Source: Chloroflexota bacterium (GTDB lineage Bacteria > Chloroflexota > Limnocylindria > Limnocylindrales > CSP1-4). From it: a DNA stretch of 55,579 bases. Positions 27,265 to 43,284 of the stretch are shown in pieces. The DNA lies in NCBI GenBank assembly GCA_005889475.1, contig VBGT01000029.1, forward strand, positions 4,711-60,289. The letters are read 5' to 3'. Every line of letters starts with the position of its first letter. Within the stretch, counting starts at the first letter, position 1. The notes below the pieces were generated by a model. It worked only from the letters and a program-made list of their open reading frames with translations, was not told the origin of the DNA and did no database searches. A program made the position numbers and the translations under genes.

Positions 27265-28326
27265 TCAGGCGGGCCGGCGCACGTCCGGGTTGGGCAGCAG
27301 GATCTCGTCGACTGCCCGAACGAGATCCCAGTACGAGGCGATGAAGGTGCGCAGGGTGCGCACCGTCGCCCCGTAGGTATCGAACTCCTCGACGGCGAGC
27401 CCATCCGGCTCATACGCGCGCCGGAAGTCGGGGATGCGCTCGAGGAGGGCTTCGAGATGCCGCTCCGGCACGGGCTCGTCGAAGCGCGGCAGGACCTCGA
27501 CGTTCGACGAGTTGAATCGGCGCTGCCACTGGTAGGGCATGGTCAGGGTGACGTTGCCGCCGATCAGCTCCGTCCAGTGCAGCACGTGGCGATAGGCGGC
27601 CGCGAGCGGCCGCGTCCGCCAGCCGCGCTCGGAAAAGATGGCGGCGGCACGCTTGAAGACCGCGATTCCGGCCCAGTTCGGCGCAGCTGGATCGAGTGCG
27701 AGGTCGTCGCGCTCGACGATTGCTTTCATCCAGTCGTCGAGCCTGCCCATCATCACCGTACACACGGGGCTCATCTCGGACGTGTCGAGGCCGGCCGCCT
27801 GGCGCCGTGACAGGCCCTGCTCGACGGCCTGACCGACGGCGAGCGCCTGGGGCACGGTGAACGACACGGTCGCGTTGATCGAGATGCCGAGGAACGTCGC
27901 CACCTCGATCGCCGCGATCCCGGCCGCGGTTGCAGGGAACTTGACCTGCATGTTCGGGGCGAGCTCGGCGAATCGGCGGCCCTGTTCGAGCATCCGGGCG
28001 GCATCGCGAAAGAACGTCGGGTTCGTCTGGATGGACAGACGACCTCTGCGCCCGGCCGCGCCTCGGTGGATGGACGCCAGCTGGGCCGCGCCGCGCGCGG
28101 CCATCTCCTCGATCAGCTGCCAGGTGGTGTCCACGTCGGACGCGAGCGGACGCTCCCGCGCGATCGCCTGGATCCGCGGGAGCCAGACGTCATGCTCCTT
28201 CTTCAGGACCTCGCCGACGATCGTCGGGTTCGACGTCGCCCCGACGGCGCCCCGGGCGATCGCGTAGTCGAGCTCGGCGACGGCGCACGAGTCGTTCCAG
28301 TACTCCGTCGGGGTCGTTCGCGCCAT
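27265..28326 (-). CDS. Transaldolase-family (class I aldolase) protein
   Basis: GAVGATSNPTIV, a Schiff-base lysine context NMQVKFPATAAG, and SINATVSFTVPQA. The start is either the ATG at 28326 (MARTTPTEYWNDS) or 28398. It is the last gene of the iolD-iolB operon. Confidence 0.75.
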   Translation of the reverse strand: MARTTPTEYWNDSCAVAELDYAIARGAVGATSNPTIVGEVLKKEHDVWLPRIQAIARERPLASDVDTTWQLIEEMAARGAAQLASIHRGAAGRRGRLSIQTNPTFFRDAARMLEQGRRFAELAPNMQVKFPATAAGIAAIEVATFLGISINATVSFTVPQALAVGQAVEQGLSRRQAAGLDTSEMSPVCTVMMGRLDDWMKAIVERDDLALDPAAPNWAGIAVFKRAAAIFSERGWRTRPLAAAYRHVLHWTELIGGNVTLTMPYQWQRRFNSSNVEVLPRFDEPVPERHLEALLERIPDFRRAYEPDGLAVEEFDTYGATVRTLRTFIASYWDLVRAVDEILLPNPDVRRPA

Positions 28327-28381
28327 GACCGCGAGCGGGCTCTCGTCGGCTCGCTCGTCCGCATCGATCCGGCGTTCGAGC

Positions 28382-29260
28382 TCAACCGCGGGGCACATCA
28401 GGGCTCCAATCCATGAGCCAGGCGTGGTCCGGATCGAGAGTGAACCGCCACTCCCGGACCGGCCCGGCCATCACGTTGAGGTAGTAGCAGTCATAGCCGG
28501 CGGCCGCAGCAACCGGATGGTAGCCCCGCGGCACCAGGACGACGTCCCCGTCCATCGGGGTGAGTGCCTCGTCGAGCGTCCTGTCCGACGTGTACACACG
28601 CTGGAAGGCAAAGCCCTGCGGGAGCGCGAACCGGTAGTAGTAGAGCTCCTCCAGCAGGCATTCCCGCGGCGGGTCGTCGGTGTCGTGCTTGTGCGGTGGA
28701 TAGCTGGACCAGTTCCCACCCGGGGTGATGACCTCGACGATGAGGAGCCGGCCGGCCGGCTCCTCGGCCGGCAGCAGGTGGCGAACGGTCCGCGCCATCC
28801 TGCCGGAGCCGCGGGCCTCGATTCGCGTCGTTTCGGGGTCGATCAGCCGGGTCTCGCGCACGTCGCCGCCGGGCGCCGCGGCGAGGGCGATCGAGGCGGC
28901 GCCGAGGGCCGTGATCTCAACCCCTTGGCCGGGCTCGACCAGGACGACCGGAGCCGGGACCTCATCGAAGACCGAAGCGCGGCTGCCGACCTGACCGAGG
29001 TGTCGACCGCCAACCGAGACCCGGGCCTCCCCCTCCAGCACCACGACGCCGACCTCGCGCCCGTCGCCGGCTCGGGTGATCGACGACCCGTCGGTCAGGG
29101 TGTGGGCCGAGAACGATACCCATCGCCAGCCGGCCGGCGCGTCACCGCCGGGCGCGCCGTCACCGTCGATCCTGATCGTGGCGCCGTCGTCGGCCGGCGG
29201 GCCGGGCCGGCGATGCAGGTCGAGCACGGCGTCAGACGAAACGCCGCTCGGTCGCGACAT
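28382..29260 (-). CDS. iolB: 5-deoxy-glucuronate isomerase
   Basis: Cupin-type PGGNWSSYPPHKHDTDD, EELYYYRF, VVLVPRGYHPV, YYLNVMAGP. The start is uncertain: the ATG at 29260 overlaps iolD by 29 nt, and a GTG at 29227 lies 4 nt after the iolD stop. Confidence 0.8.
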   Translation of the reverse strand: MSRPSGVSSDAVLDLHRRPGPPADDGATIRIDGDGAPGGDAPAGWRWVSFSAHTLTDGSSITRAGDGREVGVVVLEGEARVSVGGRHLGQVGSRASVFDEVPAPVVLVEPGQGVEITALGAASIALAAAPGGDVRETRLIDPETTRIEARGSGRMARTVRHLLPAEEPAGRLLIVEVITPGGNWSSYPPHKHDTDDPPRECLLEELYYYRFALPQGFAFQRVYTSDRTLDEALTPMDGDVVLVPRGYHPVAAAAGYDCYYLNVMAGPVREWRFTLDPDHAWLMDWSPDVPRG

Positions 29261-31109
29261 GCTCGACGTAGTCGTCGCGGGCCGCGCGGACGGACGGCGA
29301 GGCGGTGACCTCGGCGATCGGGACGTCCCACCAGCTGGCATAGGCGGGAACCTCGATGCTCGGATCGATCTGCGTGACGATCACCGTCGTGCGCCGGCTG
29401 GCACGGGCCGTGGCCAGGGCCTGTGCGAGGCTCGCCGGGTCGTCCGCGACCAGCGCATCGGCGCCGAGGCTGCGGGCGTTGGCCGCGAAGTCGAAGCGCA
29501 GGGGCTCGCCGCTGAGGCGGCCGGTCGACGGGTCTCGGCGGCCGAACCTGTTGAAGTCGTTTCGACCGCCGCCCGCGCGCGACAGGTTGTCGATCGACTG
29601 GAACGCGTGGTTCTCGAGGAGGACGATGATCAGCTTGCGGTCCTCCTGCACGGCCGTCGCGATCTCGGCCGAGAGCATCAGGTAGGACCCGTCGCCGACC
29701 ATCACGAACACCTCCGCCTCGGGCGCGGCAAGCTTCACGCCGAGACCTCCGGCGATCTCGTAGCCCATGGTCGAGTAGCCGTATTCGAGGTGATACGTCG
29801 TCGGCCGGGTGGTCCGCCACAGCTTGTGCAAGTCGCCGGGCAGGCTGCCCGCGGCGCAGACCACGCTGTCATCGGGGCCCGCCGCCTCCCCGACGAGCCG
29901 GATCGCCTCCGGCTGCGAGACGTGCACCGGGCTGGCCAGGTGGCGAACTCGATCGACCTCTGCGTTCCACTCCTCGCTCAACCGCGCGCCGAGCGCGCGC
30001 CGGTCAGGCTCGACACCGGCCCAGCCGCGCGCGCCGAGGGCCGCCGCCAGCTCCTCGATCCCGGCCCGGGCATCGGCGACGATCGGCAGGGCGGCTGCCT
30101 TCGCCGCGTCGAACTCGGCGACGTTCAGCGCCACGAACCGGACCTCCGGGTCCTGCCAGGCGGTCCAGCTCGCCGTCGTGAAGTCGCTGAGCCGCGTCCC
30201 GATCGCGAGGACCAGGTCCGCATCATGAGCGAGGACGTTCGCCGCCGAGCCGCCGGTCACACCGATCGGACCCACCTGCAAGGGGTGATCCCAGGGCAAC
30301 GCGCCCTTGCCCGCCTGGGTCTCCGCGACCGGGAGCCCGAACTGCCGGACGAACCGGTCGAGGATCTCGCTCGCATCGCTGTAGATGACACCGCCACCGA
30401 CGACCACGAGCGGCCGCCGGCTGGCGGCGATCGCGTCGGCGGCCCGCTCGAGCGCGGCCCGGTCCGGGCGGGGACGGGGCACATGGCGGACGTTCGGCTC
30501 GAGGAATCCGCCGGGAACGTCGAATGCCTCGGCCTGCACGTCCTGTGGCAGGGCCAGGGTGACCGCTCCGGTCTCCGCGGGTGAGGTGAGGATGCGCATC
30601 GCGGCCGGCAACGCGGTGATCAGCTGCTCCGGCCGGTTGATCCGGTCCCAGTACCGGGAGACGGGGCGCAGCGTGTCGTTGACCGACACGTCCTGGCTGT
30701 CCGCCCGCTCGAGCTGCTGGAGCACGGGCGCGACCCGGCGGCTCGCGAAGAGATCGCCCGGGAGCAGGAGGACCGGCAGCCGATTGACCGTCGCCGCGGC
30801 GGCACCGGTGACGAGGTTCGTCGCTCCGGGCCCGATCGAGGTCGTGCAGGCGAATGCCCGGAGGCGCCGGGACTTCTTGGCGAACCCCGCGGCGGTGTGG
30901 ACCATCGACTGCTCGTTCCGGGCCTGGTAGTACCGGAAGCTGTCGCCGGCCGCCTCGAGCGCCTCGCCCAGGCCGGCCACGTTGCCGTGGCCGAAGATGC
31001 CGAACATGCCGGCGAAGAACGGCTGCTCCACGCCGTCGCGCTCGACCGATTGGGCGGCGAGGAAGCGGACGATGGCCTGGGCCGCGGTCAGTCGCTCCGT
31101 CTCGGCCAC
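29232..31109 (-). CDS. iolD: 3D-(3,5/4)-trihydroxycyclohexane-1,2-dione acylhydrolase (TPP enzyme)
   Basis: 625 aa. MAETERLTAAQAIVRFLAAQ, FGIFGHGNVAGLGEAL, and the TPP motif GDGSYLM...N. Confidence 0.85.
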   Translation of the reverse strand: MAETERLTAAQAIVRFLAAQSVERDGVEQPFFAGMFGIFGHGNVAGLGEALEAAGDSFRYYQARNEQSMVHTAAGFAKKSRRLRAFACTTSIGPGATNLVTGAAAATVNRLPVLLLPGDLFASRRVAPVLQQLERADSQDVSVNDTLRPVSRYWDRINRPEQLITALPAAMRILTSPAETGAVTLALPQDVQAEAFDVPGGFLEPNVRHVPRPRPDRAALERAADAIAASRRPLVVVGGGVIYSDASEILDRFVRQFGLPVAETQAGKGALPWDHPLQVGPIGVTGGSAANVLAHDADLVLAIGTRLSDFTTASWTAWQDPEVRFVALNVAEFDAAKAAALPIVADARAGIEELAAALGARGWAGVEPDRRALGARLSEEWNAEVDRVRHLASPVHVSQPEAIRLVGEAAGPDDSVVCAAGSLPGDLHKLWRTTRPTTYHLEYGYSTMGYEIAGGLGVKLAAPEAEVFVMVGDGSYLMLSAEIATAVQEDRKLIIVLLENHAFQSIDNLSRAGGGRNDFNRFGRRDPSTGRLSGEPLRFDFAANARSLGADALVADDPASLAQALATARASRRTTVIVTQIDPSIEVPAYASWWDVPIAEVTASPSVRAARDDYVEHVATERRFV

Positions 31110-31134: not shown

Positions 31135-31899
31135 TCAGCGACCGACCGTGCCAGCCGTCAGCTCGCGGACCGCGGCGAGCATCGCAGCTGGGCCATCAGT
31201 GTCGATCATGTCAGCTCCGAGGGCGAGGAGCCGCTCGGCCGCCTCGCCGCCGTCGGCCGATCCACCGCCCATGAGCAGGCCACGCTCCCGCATCGTCGCC
31301 AGCAGCGAGGTGGCATTCCATTGCCATGGGACGTCCGCCCCGTCGGCGCCACAGGCATCGATCGTGGCGAGCACCGCGTCGCGATCGGCGTCGAGATAGA
31401 GCAGCAGGACGCAGGGCAGCTCCGGCACGGCAGCCTTGGCCGCCCTGATCTCGGCCGGGTCGAAGGCGTAGATCGCGAGGCGGTCCCGAGCCGGTGATGC
31501 CCAGGCGAGCCGAGCGACCGCGGCCCCGACACCCGAGGCCTTGACCTCGAGAGCTGCCCCAAAGCCCGATCGCGCCTCGATCCAGCGCAGGAACGGCGAG
31601 AGCTCGGGGATCTGCTCGCCCCGGAACGCCTCGCCGTACCAGGCGCCGGCGTCGATGCGCCGGACTTCGGCGAGGGTCATCGACGAGATCGGGCCGCTGC
31701 CGTCCGACGTCCTGTCGAGCGTGGCGTCGTGCAGGAGCACGAGCTGGCCGTCGGCGGTCCTGCGAATGTCCGTCTCGGCATACTCCGCGCCCTGGGCGAC
31801 GGCCTGCTCGAACGCGGCGTAGGTGTTTTCCGGCGCAACTGCCGAGGCGCCACGGTGCCCACCGACGCGAAGTCCGATCCCCCTAGCTCGCCAGTCCAC
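31135..31899 (-). CDS. Glycerophosphodiester phosphodiesterase-family protein
   Basis: VGGHRGASAVAPENTYAAFEQAV, ETDIRRTADGQLVLLHDATLDRT. I propose the GTG at 31899. The track ORF extends to 31974 and would overlap the ATPase gene by 92 nt. Confidence 0.75.
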   Translation of the reverse strand: MDWRARGIGLRVGGHRGASAVAPENTYAAFEQAVAQGAEYAETDIRRTADGQLVLLHDATLDRTSDGSGPISSMTLAEVRRIDAGAWYGEAFRGEQIPELSPFLRWIEARSGFGAALEVKASGVGAAVARLAWASPARDRLAIYAFDPAEIRAAKAAVPELPCVLLLYLDADRDAVLATIDACGADGADVPWQWNATSLLATMRERGLLMGGGSADGGEAAERLLALGADMIDTDGPAAMLAAVRELTAGTVGR

Positions 31900-32986
31900 C
31901 GTCGCCCTGTGCGCTCTCGTCCAGCCGGCGGGCGCCGGCCGCGTCGATCTCGACCCGGCGCCCCGTCGCGGCATCGAAGAGGTGCAGCCGGGACGGCTCG
32001 ATCCGCATGCGGACGTTGTCGTCCAACTTGAGGTGCTGCCCTTCCTCGGCGGGAACGAGCACCCGGATCGAGCTTGGTCCGACCGTGAGGTGCACCAGGA
32101 AGTCTCGCCCGAGCGGCTCGGTCAGCGTGACGACGGCCTCGAGCTCACCGGTGCCGATCTCGACGTCTTCCGGCCGAACGCCGACCAGCAGTCCGGCGCC
32201 GCCGTCGCGCACGAGCGGCTGGATCACGCGGCGAGCCAGGGCCTCGTCTGGCCCATCGGTCGCCCAGATGTTGATCTGCGGGGAGCCGATGAAACGCGCC
32301 GAGAACAGCGACGGCGGTCGGGTGTAGAGCGTCGCCGGAGCCGTCAGCGCGACGATGTTGCCATCCGACATGACCGCGACGCGATCGGCGATCGCCATCG
32401 CTTCCGATTGATCGTGGGTCACGAAGACGGTCGTCATCTTCAGGTCGAGCTGGAGGCGCCGGATCTCCGCCCGGACCTCCACCCGGAGGTGGGCGTCGAG
32501 GTTCGACAGGGGCTCGTCGAGCAGCAGGATGACCGGCTTCTTCACCAGCGCACGCGCGAGCGCGACCCGCTGGCGTTGGCCGCCAGAGAGCTGGTGCGGC
32601 CGCCGGGCCAGGAGGTTGCCGACACCCATGAGGCCGGCGATCTCGTCGACGTCGCGCTCGGCCTGCTTGCGTTCCTTCTTCGCCGCGTCGAGCGGGAAGC
32701 GGATGTTCTCGCGCACCGTCATGTGCGGGTAGATCGCGTAGTCCTGGAACACGTAGCCGATACCGCGGCGCTGCGGGGCCAGAGCGGTTACATCGACCCC
32801 GTCGAAGAGGACCCTGCCGGCCTTCGGCCGGATGAAGCCCGTGATGAACCCGAGCGTCGTGGTCTTGCCGCAGCCCGAGGGCCCGACGAGCGCCACGAGC
32901 TCGCCGTGGCCGACCGTCAGGTTGAGACCGTGAACCGCTGCGACCTGGCCGTACTCGACGGTCAGACCCTCGATGTCCAGCTTCAT
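31883..32986 (-). CDS. Sugar ABC transporter ATP-binding protein (MalK/UgpC type)
   Basis: From MKLDIEGLTVEYG: Walker A GPSGCGKTT, signature LSGGQRQRVALARAL, Walker B ILLLDEPLSNLD, C-terminal regulatory (TOBE-like) domain. Confidence 0.85.
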   Translation of the reverse strand: MKLDIEGLTVEYGQVAAVHGLNLTVGHGELVALVGPSGCGKTTTLGFITGFIRPKAGRVLFDGVDVTALAPQRRGIGYVFQDYAIYPHMTVRENIRFPLDAAKKERKQAERDVDEIAGLMGVGNLLARRPHQLSGGQRQRVALARALVKKPVILLLDEPLSNLDAHLRVEVRAEIRRLQLDLKMTTVFVTHDQSEAMAIADRVAVMSDGNIVALTAPATLYTRPPSLFSARFIGSPQINIWATDGPDEALARRVIQPLVRDGGAGLLVGVRPEDVEIGTGELEAVVTLTEPLGRDFLVHLTVGPSSIRVLVPAEEGQHLKLDDNVRMRIEPSRLHLFDAATGRRVEIDAAGARRLDESAQGDGGLAS

Positions 32987-32993
32987 GGCGAGC

Positions 32994-33845
32994 TCAACCT
33001 CGTATGGCTCCGCCGAGCCCGCCGACACGGACGAGGCGACGTTGCAGGATCGCGAAGACCGACAGCACTGGCAGCAGGGCCACGAGGCTGCCGGCCGAGA
33101 GGAGCGGCCAGTTGATGCCGTAGCCGATCTCCTGGATGTACCGCTGCAGCGCCACCGTGTACGGCTGGGCGGCTGCCTTCGGGATGAGGATCAGCGGCAG
33201 CGAGAACGAGTTCCAGCCATCGATGAATGCCAGCGTGGCGACGACGAGGATCCCCGGGATCGCGAGCGGCAGGACCACTCGGCGCATCGTCAGCACGGTG
33301 CCGGCGCCATCGATCCGGGCCGCCTGCTCCAATCGAACGGGGATCTGCCGGAAGGTCCCGGCCATGAGCCAGATCCCGAGGGGGATCGACCCTGCCGCGT
33401 ACGCGAGGATCACGGCCTGGGCGGTGCCATAGAGGCCCGTGGCCGATGTGAGGATGAACAGAGGGACGATGCGCGACGCCGACGGCAGGAAGCTCAGGGC
33501 GAGGATCACGATCAGGAGCGCCTCACCCGAGCGCATGCTGTAGCGCGCGAGGGCATAGCCGCCGAGCGTCGAGGCGACCGCCGTGATCACGGCCGAGGAC
33601 AGCCCATAGAACGCCGCGTTGCGGTATGGGCCGAGCCCGATGCCGTTTGACGCGAAGAGGACCCCGGTGATGTTGTCGAGGGTGAGGCTGGTCGGCAGGA
33701 TCGAGATCGGATAGACCGCCTGGGTGCCCGGACGAACGGCAATCGAGACGACCCAAAGGAGCGGCAGCACGGCGAAGGCGAGCGCGAGCCCGACGGCCGC
33801 GGCCCGCGCGAGGCGCTGGAGCCCCGACAGGCGAACTAGCTCCAT
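32994..33845 (-). CDS. Carbohydrate ABC transporter permease
   Basis: From MELVRLSGLQRLA (ATG at 33845, 10-nt overlap with the upstream permease). EAA-type loop LEQAARIDGAGTVLTMRRVVLPLAIPG. Confidence 0.8.
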   Translation of the reverse strand: MELVRLSGLQRLARAAAVGLALAFAVLPLLWVVSIAVRPGTQAVYPISILPTSLTLDNITGVLFASNGIGLGPYRNAAFYGLSSAVITAVASTLGGYALARYSMRSGEALLIVILALSFLPSASRIVPLFILTSATGLYGTAQAVILAYAAGSIPLGIWLMAGTFRQIPVRLEQAARIDGAGTVLTMRRVVLPLAIPGILVVATLAFIDGWNSFSLPLILIPKAAAQPYTVALQRYIQEIGYGINWPLLSAGSLVALLPVLSVFAILQRRLVRVGGLGGAIRG

Positions 33846-34729
33846 TTTCGGGTCTCGCGCCGCCAGATGATGACGTACGCCACGGCGAGGGCCAGGCTGA
33901 TCGTGAACAGGATCACCGTGACCGCCGCGCCCTGGCCGACATTGCCCTTCAGCGCCGTGAGGCGATACATCTCGAGGGCCATCGTCTCCGTGTGGTACAG
34001 CGGACCGCCACGCGTCATGGCGTAGATGAGGTCGAAGGTGTTGAGCCCGCTCACGAGGGCGACGAGGGCGGCGAGCAGGAATGTCGGCCGAATGGCCGGC
34101 AGGATTACCCGGCGGACGATCCTCGCGTACGACGCGCCGTCGACCTGGCCGGCGAGGATGATGTTCGGGGGCACGTTCGCCAGCGCTCCGCTGACGACCA
34201 GCAGCACGATGCCATAGCCCGCCCAGACGTTCGCCACCACGAGGGCAGCGAGCGCGATGCCCTGCTCGGTGAGCCAATCGAGGGGACCGATCCCCACCAT
34301 CCCGAGGACGCTGTTGGCGAGGCCGATCGCCGGGTCATAGATCAGGCGCCAGGTGTAGCCGATGATCACCGCGGCGATCACCCATGGGATGAGGTAGATG
34401 GCGAGCAACGCGGAACGGACGCCCGCGCTGACCGTGTGCAGCGCGAGCGCGAGGCCCGTTCCCAGGGCCAGCGATCCGAAGAGGGTCCCTGCCGTAAAGA
34501 TCGCCGTGACCGCGACCACGCTGATGAAGGACGGGGCGTCCTCCGAGAAGACGGCCTGGAAGTTCTTGAGTCCGACCTCCTTCACGTTGAAGAGCCGGCC
34601 GATCGTGGCGCCCGTGGTCGAGTAGAAGAAGGTCAGCAGGTACGGCAGGAGCAGGAACAGGAACAGAAGCAGGAGGGGCAGGGCGAGCAGCAGCCAGGGA
34701 GTCGCCCGACCAAAGGCTCCACGAACCAT
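33836..34729 (-). CDS. Carbohydrate ABC transporter permease
   Basis: 297 aa, 6 TM helices, EAA-type loop AGQVDGASYARIVRRVILPAIRP. Confidence 0.8.
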   Translation of the reverse strand: MVRGAFGRATPWLLLALPLLLLFLFLLLPYLLTFFYSTTGATIGRLFNVKEVGLKNFQAVFSEDAPSFISVVAVTAIFTAGTLFGSLALGTGLALALHTVSAGVRSALLAIYLIPWVIAAVIIGYTWRLIYDPAIGLANSVLGMVGIGPLDWLTEQGIALAALVVANVWAGYGIVLLVVSGALANVPPNIILAGQVDGASYARIVRRVILPAIRPTFLLAALVALVSGLNTFDLIYAMTRGGPLYHTETMALEMYRLTALKGNVGQGAAVTVILFTISLALAVAYVIIWRRETRKWS

Positions 34730-34770
34730 GGCGGTCGGCGACTCCCTGACGGCGTTTGTACCGGCTCTGC

Positions 34771-36114
34771 CTATGGCGCGAGCAGGGTGTTGACCTTGTC
34801 GGCTGCCTGGTCAAGGGCGTCCTTCGTCGACAGGTCGCCGGTGATGGCCTTCTGCATGCCGGTCCACAGGATCTCGATCATGTCCGTGTACTTCGCGATA
34901 AATGGCGGGAAGTGCGCGACCTTCGCCGCGTCCGCTTCCTGAGCGAAATACGGGTCGGCCTTGAAGGCGTCGGCCTCCGCGAGTCCGGAGGTACGGACCG
35001 GGATGCGGGTGCGATCCACCTCGAACGGGACCATATTCTTGCCGTCGGTCACCATCGTGAGGTAGTCCCAGGCCAGGTCCTTGTTGGGGCTGTCCGCGTT
35101 GATGGCCAGCATCCAGCCGCCCGCCGTGGACGCCGCCTGGCAGCCCGCGCAGAGGGGCGGCAGCGCGGCCCCGATGGTGCTCTGGAACTTGGCCACGTCG
35201 AACCCGTCGGGCAGCGACCCGAGGCCGTCGCCGACCGTCGCCAGCATGATCCCGGCCTTGCCGGAGAACACATGCGCGATGTTGTCGTCCGCAGTCTCTC
35301 CGAGCACGGCCTTGGGGGTGTAGCCCTGTTTGACCAGGTCGACGTAGAGCTGCAGGGCCTTCTGGCCGCCTGCATCGTTGAACGCGGCCTTCGTGTTGTC
35401 GGCGTTCAGGATGTTCGAGCCGGTCATGTACAGGTAGGAGTAGAAGCGGTCGACCGTGCTCTCTTCCGAGGAGGCCGGGAATTCGACCGGGCTCACGCCG
35501 GGCACCTTGGCCTTGATGGCCGCTGCATCCGCGAAGAGCTCGTCCCAGGTCGTCGGGCCCTTCTCGGGGTCCAGGCCGGCCTTCTTGAAGACGTCCTTGT
35601 TCCAGACCATGAGCCGGATGTCGCTGTAGAACCAGACCGCGTACTGGCTGCCTTTGACGATGGTCGAGTTGGCGTATGCGGGCACGATGTCGCTCTTGTC
35701 GGCCCAGTTCGCGTAGTACGAATCGAGGTTGGCGGTGATGCCCTCGTCAACGAACTGGCCGAGCCAGATGTTGTCGAGCTGGAAGATGTCGGGCTTGTCC
35801 TCGACCGCGCCGGCCTGGCTGAGCTCGATGCGGTTGAACTGATCGGTGGAGCCGACGCCCTCGGCGAGATTGACCGTGACGCCGGGGTGGGCGGCTTCGA
35901 ACGCCGTCTTTGGACCGGGTGCCCAGGGCTGGATCCGCCCCTCCTCGACCGTGTAGTTCCGGGCCCAGACCGTGATCGTGGCAGGCGCCGCGGCCGTGGT
36001 GGCTGCCGGCTGCGACGCCGTACCGGATGCGGCCGGCGCCTGCGAAGCCGCCGGGGTACACGCGCTGCCGACGATCGCGACGACCGAGAGCAGCGCCGGG
36101 AGACGCTTGTTCAT
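34771..36114 (-). CDS. ABC transporter extracellular solute-binding lipoprotein (family 1)
   Basis: 447 aa. Signal peptide plus lipobox AIVGSAC. Typical SBP_bac_1 layout. Confidence 0.8.
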   Translation of the reverse strand: MNKRLPALLSVVAIVGSACTPAASQAPAASGTASQPAATTAAAPATITVWARNYTVEEGRIQPWAPGPKTAFEAAHPGVTVNLAEGVGSTDQFNRIELSQAGAVEDKPDIFQLDNIWLGQFVDEGITANLDSYYANWADKSDIVPAYANSTIVKGSQYAVWFYSDIRLMVWNKDVFKKAGLDPEKGPTTWDELFADAAAIKAKVPGVSPVEFPASSEESTVDRFYSYLYMTGSNILNADNTKAAFNDAGGQKALQLYVDLVKQGYTPKAVLGETADDNIAHVFSGKAGIMLATVGDGLGSLPDGFDVAKFQSTIGAALPPLCAGCQAASTAGGWMLAINADSPNKDLAWDYLTMVTDGKNMVPFEVDRTRIPVRTSGLAEADAFKADPYFAQEADAAKVAHFPPFIAKYTDMIEILWTGMQKAITGDLSTKDALDQAADKVNTLLAP

Positions 36115-36144
36115 GACTCCTCCTCCTCGTGCACGGGCGCGCCG

Positions 36145-37005
36145 TCAGGCAACAGCGGGCGCGACCCGGCGTGAACCAAAACGCTCAACGATGGGCGCAA
36201 GTTCGGTGAGATCCTCGGCGCTGCCCACGACGAGGTGGACCAGCGTGCCTTCCTCCCAGAGTCGTACCGCGCGACCGGCCTCGCGGGCGAGGACGACGCC
36301 GGCGGCAACATCCCAGATTCGAAGCCCGATCCCGAGCATGCAGCCTCCGTGGAGGGCTACGTTGAGCAGTGCATACGCGGCTCCTCCGACCATCCGGATG
36401 ACTCGCGGCCGAGTCCGGGCGAGCTCCCCGATCGTGCCCACCATGACGGGATCCAGGTCCTCCCAGCCGAATTCCAGGAACACCCGTGCGGCGCCGGCAG
36501 GTGAGGTGGTGGGCTCGCACCCTGACTCTTCGCCGGCACTGCTGGCGAGGACGGTGCCGGTCCCGGCCCTCGCCCGGTAGACGACGCCGGCGGACAGGTC
36601 GGCGATCGCGCCCACGACCGGCTGGCCGTGCCTGAGGCACGCGATCGAGCAGGTCGCCCCCGCGAGACCGGTCGAGTAGTTGAGCGTGCCGTCGATCGGA
36701 TCGACGATCCACTGCCAGCCGTCGGAACCACTGGTGCCGCCTTCCTCTTCACCGAGGAACCCGTGCCCGGGGAATCGGTCCCGGACCTGGGTCCGCAGGA
36801 AGCGTTCGATCAGCCCGTCGGCCGGCGTGACGATGTCGAACGGGTCGCCCTTCCGGGCGCCCTCCGAGCCGGTGGCGGGATCCGTCGCCAGCTGCATCGC
36901 CGCCGTCGCCCATTCGAGGACCGCTTCGAACGCCAGTTCCTCCGTCGCCGATGGACTCGTCAGCGATCCATCCTCCCGATGCGGGGCGTCGGCCAGGAGA
37001 GCCAC
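36145..37005 (-). CDS. Inositol monophosphatase-family protein
   Basis: GFLGEEEG, WIVDPIDGTLNY, WDVAAGVVLAREAG. The start is uncertain: the GTG at 37005 is preferred, because the track start at 37116 would overlap the LacI gene by 68 nt. Confidence 0.75.
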   Translation of the reverse strand: MALLADAPHREDGSLTSPSATEELAFEAVLEWATAAMQLATDPATGSEGARKGDPFDIVTPADGLIERFLRTQVRDRFPGHGFLGEEEGGTSGSDGWQWIVDPIDGTLNYSTGLAGATCSIACLRHGQPVVGAIADLSAGVVYRARAGTGTVLASSAGEESGCEPTTSPAGAARVFLEFGWEDLDPVMVGTIGELARTRPRVIRMVGGAAYALLNVALHGGCMLGIGLRIWDVAAGVVLAREAGRAVRLWEEGTLVHLVVGSAEDLTELAPIVERFGSRRVAPAVA

Positions 37006-37048
37006 TATAGGTGCGCCATCTGGCCCTTGCAAGGTTCCAAGAAACAGG

Positions 37049-38074
37049 TCAAGGAGGCGGCCCGGTCGATCCTCGCACCTTGAGCGCCACGCTCGCGAGG
37101 GTGACGTGCGGACCACCCGCGATCCGCCCTTCGATGCGCCCGAGGAGGGCTTCCACCCCGAGGCGCACGAGTGCCTCCCGGGGCTGGCTCACGGTGGTCA
37201 GGTTGATGCGGCGCAGGCGGCCAACCTCCACGTCATCGAAGCCGACGATCGAGAGCGCCCGGGGCACGCGGACGCGAAGGGCGTCGGCGACGTCCAGCAG
37301 GTCGATCGCGGTGTAGTCATTCACGGCGAAGATTCCGGTGGCCGGCTGGTCGCCCGTCAGGATCGTCCGCCACTCGGTCCTGGTGCCGCCGACGGTCACG
37401 TCGCCACTCGGTGGGTCCCACGAGATGACCAGTGGTTGGAGGTCGGCATCGGCGGCGGCGCGCAGGAAGCCCTCGAGACGCCGGGCGTCCGCCCGATCGT
37501 GTCGCTGGGGCCCGACGAAGGCGAGCCTACGGTGCCCGAGCTCGATGAGATGCCGCGCGACGAGCTCACCGCCGCGATGCTCGTCGACGGTCACGGAGTC
37601 GGCCCACGGTTCCTCGGCGGCGATGAACACGGCCGGGATCTGGCGGTTGATCCTCGCGCCGATGTCGGATGGGCGTCCCAGGAATGACAGGAACACGAGG
37701 CCGCTGACCCGGTTCTCGAGCATCAGGCCGATCGCCTGCGCCTCCCGGTCGTGGTCGCCTTCGGTCGCACAGAACATGGCGGCAAAGCCGGACCTCGCGA
37801 TCTCACGCTCGACGAGGGCCGCCATCTCCGCGATGAACGGATTGGTCAGGTCACGGGCGATGATGCCAACCGTTCTCGCCCGACCGTTGAGCAGGTGGCG
37901 CGCGAGGGCGTTCGGCCGATAGCCGAGCTGATCGATCGCGGTCTGGACCCGGCGTCGCGTCCGGGTGGCAACCACGTCCGAGCCGCGGACGACGTTCGAC
38001 ACGGTCGACGCGGAGACTCCGGCGAGCCGCGCCACGTCGCCGAGCGTGGCCGGCCTGGTCCCCGGCTCCGTCAT
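37049..38074 (-). CDS. LacI-family transcriptional regulator
   Basis: From the ATG at 38074 (ATGA overlap with the upstream gene): HTH ATLGDVARLAGVSASTVSNVVRG and YRPNALARHL, followed by a periplasmic-binding-protein-like effector domain. Confidence 0.85.
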   Translation of the reverse strand: MTEPGTRPATLGDVARLAGVSASTVSNVVRGSDVVATRTRRRVQTAIDQLGYRPNALARHLLNGRARTVGIIARDLTNPFIAEMAALVEREIARSGFAAMFCATEGDHDREAQAIGLMLENRVSGLVFLSFLGRPSDIGARINRQIPAVFIAAEEPWADSVTVDEHRGGELVARHLIELGHRRLAFVGPQRHDRADARRLEGFLRAAADADLQPLVISWDPPSGDVTVGGTRTEWRTILTGDQPATGIFAVNDYTAIDLLDVADALRVRVPRALSIVGFDDVEVGRLRRINLTTVSQPREALVRLGVEALLGRIEGRIAGGPHVTLASVALKVRGSTGPPP

Positions 38075-39015
38075 GGCGCCGCGCCTGCCCGTGCGAGGAG
38101 CACCGCGGAGGTGGCGATCCCCGCCTCCGGAGCGACCAGCCGATCCTCGTGCTCGACGCTCATGAACGGCGCGCTCGTGTCTCGTTCGAGGGCCGCACGG
38201 AAAGCCTGCCACCAGGCGAGCTCGTGGGCGCCATGCCCGACTGCGGCGAAGTCCCAGGGGATGTTGGCCGGGTCACCCGGCCACCGGCTGTCCAGGAGAC
38301 CGTGCAACGCAAGCTCACCTTCGTTGTAGCGGACGTCCTTGGCGTGGGCGTAGCCGACCAGCGGCCCGAGTCGCCCGACCACCGCGAGCGGGTCCATCTG
38401 CTGCCAGAACAGGTGACTGGGATCCAGGTTGACCGCGATCGCGGGCGCCACGGCATGGAGCCGAAGGAAGGTCTCGACGTTGTACACGTGCGCGCCGGGG
38501 TGAAGCTCGAGGCAGATCGTCAGCCCGGGGCTGACCCTGGTGACGAGCTCATTGATCTCCTCCCAATACGGGCGGACCCGGTTCTCCCACTGCCAGGCCG
38601 CGACGCCGGCGTAGTCCGGAAGCCAGGCATTTGCCGCGAAATGCGGTGCCGAGCTCGGCTCGGGCCCCGCGGCAGGGCAGCCCGACATCGCGACGATGCG
38701 CTCGACGCCCAGCTCCCCGGCCAGCTCGATCGTTCGGCGCAGGTCGGCGTCATGGCGCCGGGCGATCGCGTCGTTCGGGTGCAGCGGATTGCCGGAGACG
38801 TTGAACGCCGCAACCCGGTAGCCACGTCCCGCCAGACGGGCGTGCCACGCCTGGCGCTCTTGCGCGCTCAGGTCCAGCGGTGAGTGGCCGAGGGGCGAGT
38901 ACCCGCCCGTCCCGATCTCGAGGTCGCGGATCTCGGCAACGTTCTCGTCCAGCCAGCCCATGAGGTCGTCAAGGGACCGATGGATCATCCCCTCTGTGAC
39001 CAGGGCGAGCCTCAC
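38071..39015 (-). CDS. Sugar phosphate isomerase/epimerase (xylose-isomerase-like TIM barrel)
   Basis: 314 aa. LELHPGAHVYN, VNLDPSHLFWQ, HAKD, SVEHED. Paralog of 50567-51508. Confidence 0.75.
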   Translation of the reverse strand: MRLALVTEGMIHRSLDDLMGWLDENVAEIRDLEIGTGGYSPLGHSPLDLSAQERQAWHARLAGRGYRVAAFNVSGNPLHPNDAIARRHDADLRRTIELAGELGVERIVAMSGCPAAGPEPSSAPHFAANAWLPDYAGVAAWQWENRVRPYWEEINELVTRVSPGLTICLELHPGAHVYNVETFLRLHAVAPAIAVNLDPSHLFWQQMDPLAVVGRLGPLVGYAHAKDVRYNEGELALHGLLDSRWPGDPANIPWDFAAVGHGAHELAWWQAFRAALERDTSAPFMSVEHEDRLVAPEAGIATSAVLLARAGAAP

Positions 39016-39162: not shown

Positions 39163-40281
39163 GTGACGTCGAGCCCGGCTCCGACGCGGGTGAGGGTGGG
39201 CGTGATCGGAGCGGGTCTCATCGCGCAGGTCATGCACCTCCACTACCTGCGCGAGCTGGCGGACCGCTTCGAGATCTCCGCGATCTGCGACATCGCCCCG
39301 GAGAACGCGGCCGCGAGCGCCGAGCGGTACGGCGTCGCGAAGGTCTGCACGGATTGGCGAGACCTGTTGCGCGAGCCGATCGACGCCATCCTGGTGCTCA
39401 CGGCCGGCAGCCACGCTCCGATGGCGATCGAGGCTGCCCGGGCCGGGGTTCACGTCCTCGTCGAGAAGCCGATGTGCTTCTCCACCAGGGAGGGTGCGGC
39501 GATGGTCGACGCCGCCGAACGGGCGAACGTCACGCTCATGGTCGCGTACAACAAGCGCCACGACCCCGCATACGTCCGGTTCCAGGACGAGGCGGCAGCC
39601 ATGAGCGACGCTCGTTTCCTGCGGGTGACCACCCTCGAGTCTCCGATCCAGCCGTACGTCTCGCACTATCCCCTCGCACCGATCGGACGGCCGCCGCCAG
39701 CCGAGCTCGAGCGACTTCGGGCGGAGACTGCGGCCAGCATCACGGCGGCCATCGGCGCTGCCGACGAGTTCCACCGGAAGGCGTATCACGCGGTCCTCCT
39801 CGACACCCTCGTGCACGAGATCAATGCCGTGCGAGGACTGCTCGGCGAGCCGGACCGACTCGACTATGTCGACCTCCGGGAGGGCAGCCTGACCGCGATG
39901 CTGCGCTTCGGGGACCTGCCGGTCGCCATCCACTGGATCGATCTGCCCGGCATCGCCCGGTACAAGATGGAGTTCGCGCTGTATTCCCCCGATCGGCGCG
40001 TGACGCTCTCCTTCCCATCGCCGTTCCTGCGCAGCGAGCCAACCATCCTCGAGATCGAGACCGGCGTGGCCGGCTCCGCCGAATCCGGGGTGTCGCACCA
40101 GATCACGTCCTACGAGAGCGGCTTCAAGCGCGAGCTGATCGCGTTCCACGATTGCGTGGTCAACGGCACCCCACCGCTGACCTCCGGCGCCGACGCGCTA
40201 CGCGACATCGCGCTGTGCCAGGCCATCATCGAGTCCCACCGGACCGGCCGCCCGATCGACCATCCGACCGAGAGCGCATGA
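39163..40281 (+). CDS. Gfo/Idh/MocA-family oxidoreductase (inositol 2-dehydrogenase-like)
   Basis: 372 aa. Rossmann motif VGVIGAGLIAQ, and the consensus HVLVEKPM. Confidence 0.7.
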   Translation: MTSSPAPTRVRVGVIGAGLIAQVMHLHYLRELADRFEISAICDIAPENAAASAERYGVAKVCTDWRDLLREPIDAILVLTAGSHAPMAIEAARAGVHVLVEKPMCFSTREGAAMVDAAERANVTLMVAYNKRHDPAYVRFQDEAAAMSDARFLRVTTLESPIQPYVSHYPLAPIGRPPPAELERLRAETAASITAAIGAADEFHRKAYHAVLLDTLVHEINAVRGLLGEPDRLDYVDLREGSLTAMLRFGDLPVAIHWIDLPGIARYKMEFALYSPDRRVTLSFPSPFLRSEPTILEIETGVAGSAESGVSHQITSYESGFKRELIAFHDCVVNGTPPLTSGADALRDIALCQAIIESHRTGRPIDHPTESA

Positions 40282-41222
40282 CCGCGGTCGGGTCCGGGGG
40301 CGCGTCCGGCATCGTCGTCGCCAATGCGCCGGTCAGCTATGGCGCCTTCGAGCTGACCGTCGGCATCGATCCCAATGTTCCGGACGGGCTCCAGGTCCTC
40401 GACGAGGTGGCCGGGGCCGGCTATGCGGGCATCGACCTCGGGCCCGTCGGCTATCTCGGCCGCGGCGCCGAGCTAGGAGAGCGTCTCGCCGGCCGCAATC
40501 TCGGCCTTGCCGGGGGGTACCTGGAGCTGCCGTACGCCGATTCGGAGGCGCTCCATCAGGCCATGCCGGCGCTCGATGAGCTGCTCTACGCGTTCGACGC
40601 CGCCGGGCCTAACCGGGACGCCCCGCCACCCCGGCCGACGCTTGCCGATGCCGGCAGCGAGTCCCGCCGGGCGCGCCCCGGCCGGTCCGGCGCCGACCAC
40701 GGCCTGGGCCTGGATGCGGATGGCTGGCAGCGATTCGGCGTGGGTCTGGCCGAGGTGGTCGGACGCTGCCGCGACCGAGGCTATGAGCCCACGTTCCACC
40801 ACGAGACCGGGACGTACGTCGAGGCACCCTGGGAGGTCGAGCGGGTCCTGGAGGTTTCGGACATCGGGCTCTGCCTCGACGCCGGCCACTTCCTGCTCGC
40901 CGGCGGCGACCCCGTGGCGGCGATCGGAACGTGGGCCCCGCGCATCAACCATTTCCACCTGAAGGACGCCCGCCGATCGGTGATGGCCGGGATCGTCGCC
41001 GACGGAGTGCCTGCCACCGGGATCTGGGAGCGCGAGGCTTTCCCCCCGCTGGGCCAGGGCGACCAGGACGTCGACGGCATCATTGCCGCGCTGCGACGGA
41101 TCAGCTATCAGGGCTGGCTCGTCGTGGAGCAGGACACGCTGCCCCGCACGAAGGCGCGTTTCGACCAGGCGGCTGCGGACCAGCGGGCCAACCGCAGCTA
41201 CCTCGCGGAGCGCGGATTGTGA
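40278..41222 (+). CDS. Inosose dehydratase-like sugar phosphate isomerase/epimerase (IolE-like TIM barrel)
   Basis: The ATG at 40278 overlaps the upstream stop (ATGA). FHHETGTYVE, GLCLDAGHFLLAGGDP, INHFHLKDAR, GWLVVEQD. Pattern as in IolE. It contains a Pro/Arg-rich insert of roughly 40 aa. Confidence 0.6.
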   Translation: MTAVGSGGASGIVVANAPVSYGAFELTVGIDPNVPDGLQVLDEVAGAGYAGIDLGPVGYLGRGAELGERLAGRNLGLAGGYLELPYADSEALHQAMPALDELLYAFDAAGPNRDAPPPRPTLADAGSESRRARPGRSGADHGLGLDADGWQRFGVGLAEVVGRCRDRGYEPTFHHETGTYVEAPWEVERVLEVSDIGLCLDAGHFLLAGGDPVAAIGTWAPRINHFHLKDARRSVMAGIVADGVPATGIWEREAFPPLGQGDQDVDGIIAALRRISYQGWLVVEQDTLPRTKARFDQAAADQRANRSYLAERGL

Positions 41223-42136
41223 GCGACGCACTGTTTCGCCTCGGGCTGATCGGCGCCGGTCGCATGGGCAGGACCCATCTCCGCGCCCTCGAGGGCTCGA
41301 CGTCGGTCGCGGTGACCGCGGTCGTCGAGCCCGTCGCCACGACCCGCGACGCGATCGCGGGAATGGGCATGGCCGTCTTCGAGGACGTATCCATCACCGC
41401 CCCGAGCGATCGCCACGTCGAGATCGTCACGCAGGTCGCGGCCGCGGGCCTGCCGATCCTGTGCGAGAAGCCCTGCGGGCGCTCGACCGCCGAGATCGTC
41501 GTCGCCGAGCACGCGGTGGAGCGCGACGGGATTCCCTTCCAGGTGGCGTACTGGCGCCGCTACGTGCCGGCCCTGCAGGAGCTCCGCCAGCGCATCGAGG
41601 CGGGCGAGCTGGGCGAGGTCCACCTGCTCGCCAGCTTCCAGTGGGATGAGCATCCGCCCAGCCCGGCGTTCCGTGCCCACAGCGGCGGGATCTTCATCGA
41701 CATGGGCGTGCACGAGTTCGACCAGATCCGGTGGCTCAGCGGGCAGGAGTTCGGTGATCTCGATGCAGTCTCGTCACCGGTCGGCGAAGCCGGCGACATC
41801 GGGGATGACGTGGACAGCGCACAGGCGCTCGGGACCCTTTCGGGCGGGACGAGCGCGTTCGTCTCGCTGGGACGCTTCTTTCCGGGCGGCGACATGGCGC
41901 GGATCGAGGTCTTCGGGACCGCGGATGCGGTCCGCTGCGACTTCCTCGACCCGAAGGACGGCGATCGAGCCCAGCTCGAGGCGCTGGTTCGGCAAGCCGA
42001 GGGCTTCGCGGCCTTCGCTCGCGGCGGCGCCCGCACGGGTGCCTCGATCCGGGATGCGGCTGCCGCCCTCGCGGCCGCCGAGCGAGCCGCGTCGGCGATC
42101 GCGCTCGTCCCCGCTGCCGCTGGCCCGCGCTCGTGA
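41219..42136 (+). CDS. Gfo/Idh/MocA-family oxidoreductase (short N-terminal domain)
   Basis: The GTG at 41219 overlaps the upstream stop (GTGA). LGLIGAGRMGRTH, PILCEKP, FIDMGVHEFD. The segment between the second strand and the EKP motif is shorter than in its two neighbours. Confidence 0.65.
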   Translation: MSDALFRLGLIGAGRMGRTHLRALEGSTSVAVTAVVEPVATTRDAIAGMGMAVFEDVSITAPSDRHVEIVTQVAAAGLPILCEKPCGRSTAEIVVAEHAVERDGIPFQVAYWRRYVPALQELRQRIEAGELGEVHLLASFQWDEHPPSPAFRAHSGGIFIDMGVHEFDQIRWLSGQEFGDLDAVSSPVGEAGDIGDDVDSAQALGTLSGGTSAFVSLGRFFPGGDMARIEVFGTADAVRCDFLDPKDGDRAQLEALVRQAEGFAAFARGGARTGASIRDAAAALAAAERAASAIALVPAAAGPRS

Positions 42137-43284
42137 CGGCGACTCCTGAGCTGCGCATCGGGATCGTCGGCTACGGGACGATGGGCCGCGCGCACAGCTA
42201 CGGCTATCGGGTCGCTCCGAACGTGGCTCCGCTGCCGATGCGACCCATCGTCAAGCTCCTCTCCGGCCGCGACGAGGCGGCCGTTGCCGCGGCGGCTGCG
42301 AGCTATGGCGCGGAGGCCTGGACCACTAACTGGCGCGATCTCGTCGAGCGCGACGACATCGACGTGGTCGACATCTGCACACCGCCGGGCACCCACGCGG
42401 AGATCGCCGAGGCGGCGGCCGGCGCGGGCAAGGCAGTCCTGTCCGAGAAACCGCTGGGAACGTCCTACGCCCAGGCGCACGCCGCGTGGGCCGCGGTCTC
42501 AGGAGCCGGCGTGCGCAACGCGATCGGGTTCAACTACCGGCGCCTGCCCGCCGTCGCGTTGATGCGCCGGATGATCGCCGACGGCGTCGTGGGCGATGTC
42601 AGGCTGTGGCGCGGGACCTGGCTCTCCGACGAGTTCACCGACCCCGCGACGCCATTCGACTGGCGCTTCGACCGCGCGATGGGCGGAACCACCATCGCCG
42701 ACCTCGGGAGCCACATGATCGACATGGCGCTCTGGATGGTCGGCCCGGTCGCCGAGGTGTCAGCCCAGTCGGAGACGTTCATCCGGGCGCGGCCGAGCCC
42801 GACCGGCGACCGGCGGGTCACCATCGACGATGCATCGTCGGCGCTGCTTCGTTTCGAAGGTGGCGCACGCGGGACGATCGAGATGGCTCGGCTCGCGGTC
42901 CGCCGGCCGTGCGACTTCACCATCGAGGTCAACGGGGCCAAGGGCACGCTCGTCTTCGACTATCCGCGCCTGAACGAGCTGCTGTACGGCGACGCCGGCG
43001 ACGATCCCGGTTTGTACGGCATGCGCCGGATCCGGGCCGAGCACCCGGGTCACCCCTATGCGGAGCTCGGCTGGCCGATCGGCCAGGGCATCGGCTACGG
43101 CGAGACGTTCGTGAACCAGGCAGTGGATCTCGTGCGTGCCTGGCCGAGCGGAGCCTGGACGCCGAGCTTCGCCGACGGCCTCGCCGTCCAGGCGGTGTGC
43201 GATGCCATGGAGCTGTCCGCGGCGCAGCGGCGCTGGGTCGGCATCCCGGAGATTACCGAGACCGTTAGCAGGAGGCGCCCCTGA
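42133..43284 (+). CDS. Gfo/Idh/MocA-family oxidoreductase
   Basis: 383 aa. The GTG start overlaps the upstream stop. IGIVGYGTMGRAH, AVLSEKPLG, IADLGSHMIDMA. Confidence 0.7.
   Translation: MTATPELRIGIVGYGTMGRAHSYGYRVAPNVAPLPMRPIVKLLSGRDEAAVAAAAASYGAEAWTTNWRDLVERDDIDVVDICTPPGTHAEIAEAAAGAGKAVLSEKPLGTSYAQAHAAWAAVSGAGVRNAIGFNYRRLPAVALMRRMIADGVVGDVRLWRGTWLSDEFTDPATPFDWRFDRAMGGTTIADLGSHMIDMALWMVGPVAEVSAQSETFIRARPSPTGDRRVTIDDASSALLRFEGGARGTIEMARLAVRRPCDFTIEVNGAKGTLVFDYPRLNELLYGDAGDDPGLYGMRRIRAEHPGHPYAELGWPIGQGIGYGETFVNQAVDLVRAWPSGAWTPSFADGLAVQAVCDAMELSAAQRRWVGIPEITETVSRRRP

Follow-up and report, generated by a model that had tools for sequence, protein, structure and literature searches.

The window analysed here is a 55,579 nt stretch of contig VBGT01000029.1 (denoted as contig C119) in the assembly GCA_005889475.1, which derives from an uncultured soil Chloroflexota bacterium. 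Coordinates without a contig or locus name are positions in this window. Its minus strand carries a tightly packed operon with the gene order LacI-family regulator, inositol-monophosphatase (IMPase)-family protein, ABC importer, glycerophosphodiester phosphodiesterase (GDPD), IolD, IolB, and a transaldolase (TAL)-like protein, denoted as P0001, which is the subject of this analysis. A plus-strand operon (39163–43284), divergent from the LacI gene, encodes three IolG-like oxidoreductases and one IolE-like protein. As predicted from these genes, the locus covers all steps from inositol to the IolB product, 5-dehydro-2-deoxy-D-gluconate (DKG), and continues with the TAL-like gene. The two operons comprise the following genes, where FSA denotes fructose-6-phosphate aldolase.

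27265–28398, minus strand: P0001, 377 aa, TAL/FSA-fold enzyme of a divergent subfamily (Pfam PF00923, 120 bits)
28382–29341, minus strand: IolB, 5-deoxy-glucuronate isomerase (TIGR04378, 302 bits against a cut-off of 205, residues 69–310)
29232–31109, minus strand: IolD, thiamine pyrophosphate (TPP)-dependent ring-opening hydrolase (TIGR04377, 879 bits against a cut-off of 715)
31135–31974, minus strand: GDPD (PF03009, 114 bits)
31883–33028, minus strand: ABC importer ATPase (ABC_tran and TOBE_2)
32994–34729, minus strand: two ABC permease genes (BPD_transp_1)
34771–36114, minus strand: extracellular solute-binding protein (SBP_bac_1)
36145–37116, minus strand: IMPase-family protein (PF00459, 124 bits)
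37049–38212, minus strand: LacI-family regulator (domain match)
39163–40281, plus strand: IolG-like Gfo/Idh/MocA oxidoreductase, first gene of the divergent operon (domain match)
40317–41222, plus strand: IolE-like AP_endonuc_2 TIM-barrel protein (TIGR04379, 109 bits, under the cut-off of 290)
41219–42136 and 42133–43284, plus strand: two Gfo/Idh/MocA oxidoreductases (domain match)

The TAL-like gene starts with an ATG at 28398 and overlaps the iolB gene by 17 nt up to and including the iolB stop codon (TGA, 28384–28382), with a GGAG sequence located 5 nt upstream of the start. The TAL-like gene is translationally coupled to iolB. The true start of iolB itself probably lies further downstream than that of the listed open reading frame (ORF). 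No terminator-like sites were found on the minus strand within the operon. Since a convergent MFS gene ends 10 nt past the stop codon of the TAL-like gene, this gene forms the end of the operon. The preliminary description of this DNA, which had a TAL-family gene terminating the iolD-iolB operon and no iolC, iolJ, or iolA in the window, is thereby confirmed on both counts, as no match to IolC, a class II aldolase, or MMSDH was detected on C119. The GDPD, IMPase-family, and ABC importer genes (31135–37116) are inserted between the regulator and iolD. In a close relative, L087 (79% identity), the layout of the window is repeated without this GDPD/ABC insert. The content of the insert suggests glycerophosphoinositol uptake.

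P0001 matches the TAL_FSA profile (PF00923) with 120.3 bits against a cut-off of 27 over residues 34–299, and its C-terminal part (residues ~300–377) lies outside the profile match. The NMQVKFPAT, GATSNPT, and INATVSF motifs are all found in the translation, as had been described. The protein is annotated as 'transaldolase' in public sources, and it scores far under the cut-offs of all NCBIfam transaldolase models (NF002881, 99 against 367 bits; TIGR00876, 65 against 234 bits; TIGR00874, 25 against 396 bits) and of the FSA model (TIGR00875, 52.5 against 245.95 bits). The top solved relative by sequence is the Neisseria gonorrhoeae transaldolase, at 65 bits. The AlphaFold2 model of P0001 (pLDDT 92.5) is a (β/α)8 barrel, and Foldseek aligned it with 7bbx (TM 0.76/0.81) and 3r5e (TM 0.77/0.80) at 20–22% sequence identity. 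The TAL-like family forms a well-supported clade separate from the canonical transaldolases (support 97/94).

The active-site residues of P0001 were compared with those of 34 family members and of canonical transaldolases from the same phylum, and invariance was assessed in a 15-sequence core alignment. K153 (VKFPAT) occupies the position of the Schiff-base Lys on strand β4 and is invariant. Asn175 and Thr177 (NAT) are likewise kept and invariant, D36 (WNDS) is kept and nearly invariant, and N57 is retained as part of the conserved catalytic core. R219 and R270 are kept as well and correspond to the two Arg residues at the phosphate-site (anion-binding) positions of TalB. Three positions differ. 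Q124 (SIQTNP) aligns with the catalytic Glu of the SLEVSP and SIEVNP motifs (E96 of TalB and E93 of the N. gonorrhoeae enzyme), and Gln occupies this position in all family members examined, including the distant ones. M216 is found where transaldolases carry Phe (Phe178) and FSA carries Tyr, with Met also present in the aligned core-clade members. R120 is a new residue, invariant in the core alignment, at a position held by Tyr in the canonical enzymes. In FSA, Gln59, Thr109, and Tyr131 form a water-binding triad in which Tyr131 acts as the proton shuttle (PMC13259622). Gln124 and Thr177 of P0001 correspond to the first two members, and the third is replaced by Met216, leaving the triad incomplete. 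A remodelled active site with its catalytic core kept would fit a changed anionic substrate. Since P0001 lacks the Glu and falls under the score cut-offs of transaldolases, and lacks the Tyr and falls under the score cut-off of FSA, it represents a distinct subfamily of the TAL/FSA superfamily.

The metagenome-assembled genome comprises 2.64 Mb in 123 contigs and is 90.7% complete. In a profile search of this 90.7%-complete genome, the top match to IolC (5-dehydro-2-deoxygluconokinase) reached 73 bits against a cut-off of 300. The DUF2090 aldolase (PF09863) had no match in the genome, and the class II aldolase profile (PF01116) gave a single 31-bit match on C116, leaving no convincing candidate. 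A gene for IolA/MMSDH, the CoA-acylating malonate-semialdehyde dehydrogenase, is present at C102:8587–10020 (TIGR01722, 725 bits against a cut-off of 448.5), where it adjoins genes for PEPCK and malate dehydrogenase. The genome-wide search that had been proposed for iolC, iolJ, and iolA thus extends the absence noted in the window to the first two genes, not to the third. The presence of three IolG-like proteins, an IolE-like protein, IolD, IolB, and IolA, together with the absence of IolC, DUF2090, and a convincing class II aldolase, supports the TAL-like gene as the replacement for the missing steps. The genome also carries a second transaldolase on C66, of the canonical short type with Glu and Phe intact, so that the pentose-phosphate pathway does not depend on the TAL-like gene.

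Candidates for a hidden kinase or aldolase were considered and rejected. No PfkB gene on C66 or C95 exceeds 73 bits against the IolC profile, and the one on C66 lies near CTP synthase, away from the iol genes. Three generic DeoC-family genes are present, without a kinase nearby where this was checked. The one on C58 was rejected as a hidden IolJ, as it adjoins AP_endonuc_2 and sugar ABC importer genes, with neither a kinase nor a DUF2090 signal. This segment (G000:C58:14170–17445, corresponding to L172:6171–9446) encodes a 414-aa AP_endonuc_2 protein, the DeoC-family aldolase, and a Peripla_BP_4 ABC importer.

The distribution of the TAL-like family and IolC was examined in an even sample of 301 Chloroflexota genomes, using profile cut-offs for IolD, IolB, and IolC. 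The TAL-like family occurs in 22 genomes, IolD over its cut-off in 56, IolB in 58, and IolC in 16, with one further IolC at 295 bits adjoining iolB. Both IolD and IolB are present in 29 genomes. Among these, eight (seven genera) carry the TAL-like gene without IolC, 17 (11 genera) carry IolC without the TAL-like gene, four carry neither, and none carries both. These counts are to be read as a pattern, not as a statistic, since the relatives are not independent. DUF2090 (PF09863) was not found in five relatives with the TAL-like gene. The survey shows that the TAL-like gene and IolC are mutually exclusive alternatives among the surveyed genomes with IolD and IolB. Separately, 28 of the 57 IolD-positive Chloroflexota genomes lack IolB, IolC, and the TAL-like gene, such as G116, G161, G206, and G246 (genus g62) and G010, G047, G059, and G107 (g26). 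In G221, which belongs to the same genus as the window and whose genome has neither IolD nor IolB, the TAL-like gene lies in a Mo-hydroxylase-type cluster.

Near relatives of P0001 number in the thousands in metagenomes, where 305 clusters were obtained at 50% clustering with E ≤ 1e-30, and at least 570 GTDB species genomes carry the family. Most of the listed carriers are Chloroflexota (Limnocylindria and Anaerolineae), with some Solirubrobacterales, Gaiellaceae, Thermoleophilia, and Terriglobia. Neighbouring genes were counted within 8 kb in the best 80 GTDB species loci other than the window. IolB or IolD flanks the TAL-like gene in 27 of these loci, MMSDH/IolA in 30, and IolC in two. The top immediate same-strand neighbours are MMSDH downstream (19 loci) and IolB upstream (17 loci), and the order IolB-TAL-MMSDH occurs in four. 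With 627 bits, the MMSDH adjoining the TAL-like gene qualifies as a genuine member of TIGR01722. The survey of TAL genes beside iolB and iolD suggested in the preliminary description thus bears out the association, both in these neighbours and in the split of eight TAL-like against 17 IolC genomes. In the family tree, each of the four core clades includes members linked to IolB. When 1112 ORFs neighbouring the TAL-like gene in 101 loci were clustered in an unbiased manner, no kinase family recurred. Apart from iol and MMSDH genes, the neighbours that did recur are Mo-hydroxylase-cluster, ABC-transporter, and split-transketolase genes. A full-length fusion of an IolE-like AP_endonuc_2 protein with the TAL-like protein (P0128, 655 aa) is encoded at L075:686–2653 on a 5.5-kb metagenomic contig. 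Two other fusions, P0138 (TAL with partial KduI) and P0217 (TAL with ADH), contain partial domains that may be frameshift artefacts, and they were not used as evidence. The contexts of distant members (31–40% identity) are varied or too short to inform. As a catabolic module, the TAL-like family occurs in differing contexts, and the link to MMSDH is its most general feature.

From the gene, its fold, the kept and changed residues, the operon, the missing IolC and IolJ genes, and the pattern across genomes, we infer a substrate, products, and an acceptor for P0001. The Fischer projection of DKG that we derived, with C6 on top, reads CH2OH-CO-, OH left, OH right, CH2-COO−. Viewed from its C6 end, DKG has the form of a 1-hydroxy-2-keto sugar in the D-threo (3S,4R) configuration of D-fructose, and its carboxylate lies roughly at the position of the phosphate group in fructose-6-phosphate. 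This is the donor geometry of TAL and FSA, and the derived stereochemistry substantiates the earlier proposal on this point. P0001 probably participates in a kinase-free cleavage of unphosphorylated DKG to malonate semialdehyde. With slightly less assurance, we favour its assignment as a specialised Schiff-base (class I) TAL-fold enzyme that would do the work of both IolC and IolJ. The transfer of the dihydroxyacetone unit to glyceraldehyde-3-phosphate is put forward more tentatively. The earlier interpretation, in which a TAL-like enzyme would cleave DKG without prior phosphorylation, is supported at the level of genomic prediction.

In the proposed mechanism, the DKG produced by IolB would form an imine with K153 through its C5 keto group. 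The C4–C3 bond would then be cleaved and malonate semialdehyde released, which IolA (C102) would turn into acetyl-CoA. The enzyme-bound dihydroxyacetone unit would most likely be handed to glyceraldehyde-3-phosphate, yielding fructose-6-phosphate. The kept Asp and both Arg residues would fit this chemistry and the anionic tail of the substrate, and R120 may be a carboxylate-specific addition. GDPD could conceivably yield glycerol-3-phosphate from glycerophosphoinositol, and hence the triose phosphate acceptor. Two absences favour transfer over the release of free dihydroxyacetone: P0001 lacks the FSA-type Tyr that would protonate the enamine, and a search of the genome for a Dak1 dihydroxyacetone kinase gave no match. 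The TAL-like step is kinase-free locally, as predicted, with no net ATP saving unless fructose-6-phosphate is used as such. Since the canonical route converts DKG and ATP into dihydroxyacetone phosphate (DHAP) and malonate semialdehyde, and the TAL route followed by PFK and aldolase gives the same net result, no ATP is saved overall. Of the 'ATP-independent' variant envisaged earlier, the predicted local step stands, and the net cost equals the canonical one if fructose-6-phosphate enters glycolysis.

A true aldolase working in the manner of FSA would act on the same DKG and yield malonate semialdehyde together with free dihydroxyacetone, whose phosphorylation would fall to another enzyme. The pathway logic and gene neighbourhoods would agree with such an enzyme as well as with transfer, and the Gln at the position of TalB Glu96 is the state found in FSA (PMC13259622). 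However, the replacement of the proton-shuttle Tyr by Met in P0001 and the aligned core-clade members, the lack of a Dak1-type kinase in the genome, and the lack of a kinase recurring in the clusters make this mode unlikely.

Several observations weigh against the assignment of P0001 as a transferase that replaces IolC and IolJ. The usual acid-base residue, either Glu or Tyr, is absent from P0001, and its catalytic competence is therefore a prediction. At a genome completeness of 90.7%, the case for the absence of IolC depends in part on the relatives. The listed carriers of the family are all metagenome-assembled genomes. The four surveyed genomes with IolD and IolB that have neither IolC nor the TAL-like gene also complicate the pattern; their TAL-family genes lie far from iolD and iolB, and a 354-aa ORF after iolB in one of them (G074) has no Pfam match. 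In two loci, IolC and the TAL-like gene occur together. L144 (Ardenticatenaceae) has the order IolE-IolA-DeoC/DUF2090 aldolase-IolB-IolC-IolD followed by the TAL-like gene, that is, the full canonical set in addition to the TAL-like gene, and L162 has the order TAL-IolA-IolB-IolC-IolD. The two systems are therefore not strictly exclusive. Furthermore, Mo-hydroxylase/PEP-swivel/GntR clusters without iol genes hold the TAL-like gene in 26 of the 80 loci, and operons of the type ZnADH-AP_endonuc_2-(IolB)-TAL, with no IolD within reach, occur in the nearest clade to the window. Because of these non-iol contexts, the substrate of the family may be broader than DKG, or different.

The last point leads to an explanation in which P0001 would act on another ketose or keto-acid from the breakdown of cyclitols or sugar acids, for example the product of an IolB-like isomerase from other uronates, with the adjacency to iolB reflecting a side branch. 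The ZnADH operons without IolD and the Mo-hydroxylase clusters without iol genes are in its favour, as is the pairing of the TAL-like gene in some genomes with a divergent IolD-like TPP enzyme. In the window, however, bona fide IolD and IolB genes lie directly upstream, and nothing else in the genome would take DKG onward. Even where iol genes are lacking from the cluster, MMSDH is the top downstream neighbour, and this suggests malonate semialdehyde or methylmalonate semialdehyde as the product everywhere. We consider a different substrate for P0001 rather improbable.

The co-occurrence in L162 of IolC and the TAL-like gene, with no aldolase within the cluster, would suit an enzyme that substitutes for IolJ only, splitting 6-phospho-DKG into DHAP and malonate semialdehyde once IolC or an unrecognised kinase has acted. 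The additional invariant R120 could bind a second anionic group in such an enzyme. This explanation is at odds with the lack of IolC in all eight surveyed genomes that combine the TAL-like gene with IolD and IolB, with the lack of a recurrent kinase neighbour, and with L144, which already has its own DeoC/DUF2090 aldolase. To our knowledge, the known TAL/FSA enzymes take donors with a free C1 hydroxyl group and not those of the DHAP type, which also counts against it, and its probability appears low. A housekeeping transaldolase for sedoheptulose-7-phosphate and glyceraldehyde-3-phosphate, co-transcribed with the iol genes by chance, would agree with the public annotation, the transaldolase fold, and the Schiff-base Lys, but it is very improbable and was rejected in view of the NCBIfam scores (99 against 367 and 65 against 234 bits), the Glu-to-Gln replacement in all members examined, the separate canonical transaldolase on C66, the conserved IolB/IolA synteny, the mutual exclusion with IolC in the survey, and the closest GTDB relatives, at 62–65% identity, which sit in Mo-hydroxylase/PEP-swivel/MMSDH clusters, with no pentose-phosphate operon in the neighbourhoods examined.

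Further gene arrangements were observed around other family members. In the Mo-hydroxylase clusters (FAD and MoCoBD subunits; L055:7887–15393 and 25 further loci, such as L097, L099, L105, L111, and L119), a bona fide MMSDH gene often follows directly. A paralogous 'iol-like' module comprising a TPP enzyme, an AP_endonuc_2 protein, an IolB-like protein, and the TAL-like protein is found at L065:4737–11384, L070:5804–10376, and L074:5847–10395. Its TPP enzyme shares 32–35% identity with IolD and scores under the TIGR04377 cut-off, and a true IolD is absent from these genomes. This module may serve a different cyclitol. A split transketolase, with separate N-terminal TPP and pyrimidine/C-terminal parts, lies near the TAL-like gene at L106:13611–14534, L107:10368–11315, and about 14 more loci, which recalls the sulfo-TK/TAL pairs. 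At L076:5500–10359, a distant member (40% identity) stands in tandem with a 456-aa TAL_FSA paralogue between Zn-ADH and LarA_N (lactate-racemase-like) genes. In L162 (12704–14558), iolD appears to be split over two frames into ORFs of 312 aa and 339 aa, which may reflect a frameshift or a pseudogene. In L144 (9143–14441; JACKCC010000015.1), the iol and TAL-like genes are followed by genes for a pterin-binding methyltransferase, a URO-D-like (MtaA-type) protein, a DUF1638 protein, and a RACo corrinoid activase. This set resembles an O-demethylase of the corrinoid-dependent type, whose substrates may be methyl-inositols, for example pinitol.

Considering the residues, operons, and distribution described above, we tentatively propose that the subfamily consists of DKG:glyceraldehyde-3-phosphate dihydroxyacetone transferases that work without the Glu or Tyr acid-base residue common to the characterised TAL/FSA enzymes, possibly aided by the substrate carboxylate or the new Arg. 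With these enzymes, the lower inositol pathway would run to its end without a kinase in 570 or more species-level genomes, nearly all of them uncultured, and related copies would make malonate semialdehyde in other catabolic routes (the Mo-hydroxylase and ZnADH clusters). The catabolism of myo-inositol is a textbook pathway on which genome-based predictions of carbon use draw, and tools of the GapMind type count iolC as a core gene. If the proposal is correct, hundreds of genomes of soil Chloroflexota, Actinomycetota, and other bacteria that are now scored as 'incomplete' would belong to competent inositol users. The transaldolase family would gain a new substrate class, the 5-deoxy-uronates, along with a new active-site solution. 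A dihydroxyacetone transferase that accepts a carboxylate would be of interest for biocatalysis, and the direct delivery of a hexose phosphate would matter for growth under gluconeogenic conditions.

Both the pathway and the enzyme fold are known, and the activity predicted for P0001 is undescribed. The canonical IolG-E-D-B-C-J-A system of Bacillus subtilis and Salmonella shares IolG-like, IolE-like, IolD, IolB, and IolA proteins with this genome, and the same end products, triose or hexose phosphate and acetyl-CoA, are expected. In contrast, IolC and IolJ (of the class II or DUF2090/DeoC type) are missing here, and one TAL-fold gene stands in their place. A survey of iol genes (PMC9430895) lists iolB, iolC, iolD, and iolE as core genes, and its passages on iolJ, aldolase, and Chloroflexi contain no such variant. 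Outside subscription journals, no description of the enzyme or the variant was returned by a literature search that linked transaldolase to iol genes, to synonyms of DKG, or to malonate semialdehyde. These results point to a so far undescribed kinase-free ending to the inositol pathway.

Among the enzymes of the superfamily, the long-form transaldolases (N. gonorrhoeae, 3CLM/7BBX; Corynebacterium glutamicum, 3R5E; Escherichia coli TalB, 1ONR) resemble P0001 in fold (TM 0.76–0.81) and length, and have in common with it the Schiff-base Lys, the Asp, the Asn, the Asn-x-Thr motif, and both phosphate-binding Arg residues. They differ in their 20–22% identity, in the replacement of Glu by Gln and of Phe178 by Met and the extra R120 in P0001, and in the catabolic operons in which the TAL-like gene is found. 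With the FSA of E. coli (1L6W), P0001 shares the Gln at the Glu96/Gln59 position and the equivalents of Asp6, Asn28, Thr109, and Lys85 (PMC13259622), as well as the class I type and, as predicted, the dihydroxyacetone donor. Unlike FSA, it carries Met in place of the Tyr131 proton shuttle, belongs to the long form and not to the 220-aa decameric form, and reaches 52.5 of the 245.95 bits required by TIGR00875.

Sulfofructose transaldolase (SftT/BmSF-TAL, PDB 8bc3), which operates in sulfo-TAL sulfoglycolysis, catalyses an analogous reaction on 6-sulfonated fructose (PMC7491151). BmSF-TAL is short (~220 aa) and aligns with P0001 over residues 120–189 only (28.9 bits), placing the two in separate subfamilies by length and score, and its substrate carries a sulfonate where a 5-deoxy-uronate carboxylate is predicted for P0001. 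Nevertheless, in both cases the gene for a TAL-fold enzyme directly follows that for an aldose-ketose isomerase in a catabolic operon. P0001, as proposed, would likewise act on a fructose-like ketose with a non-phosphate anion at C6, transfer its C1–C3 dihydroxyacetone unit to glyceraldehyde-3-phosphate, require neither a sugar kinase nor a separate aldolase, and leave a C3 aldehyde for a dehydrogenase. Sulfofructose transaldolase is thus the closest analogue of P0001 in its predicted mode of working, and the inositol locus, if the prediction holds, would join sulfo-TAL as the second natural case in which a transaldolase bypasses a kinase/aldolase pair.

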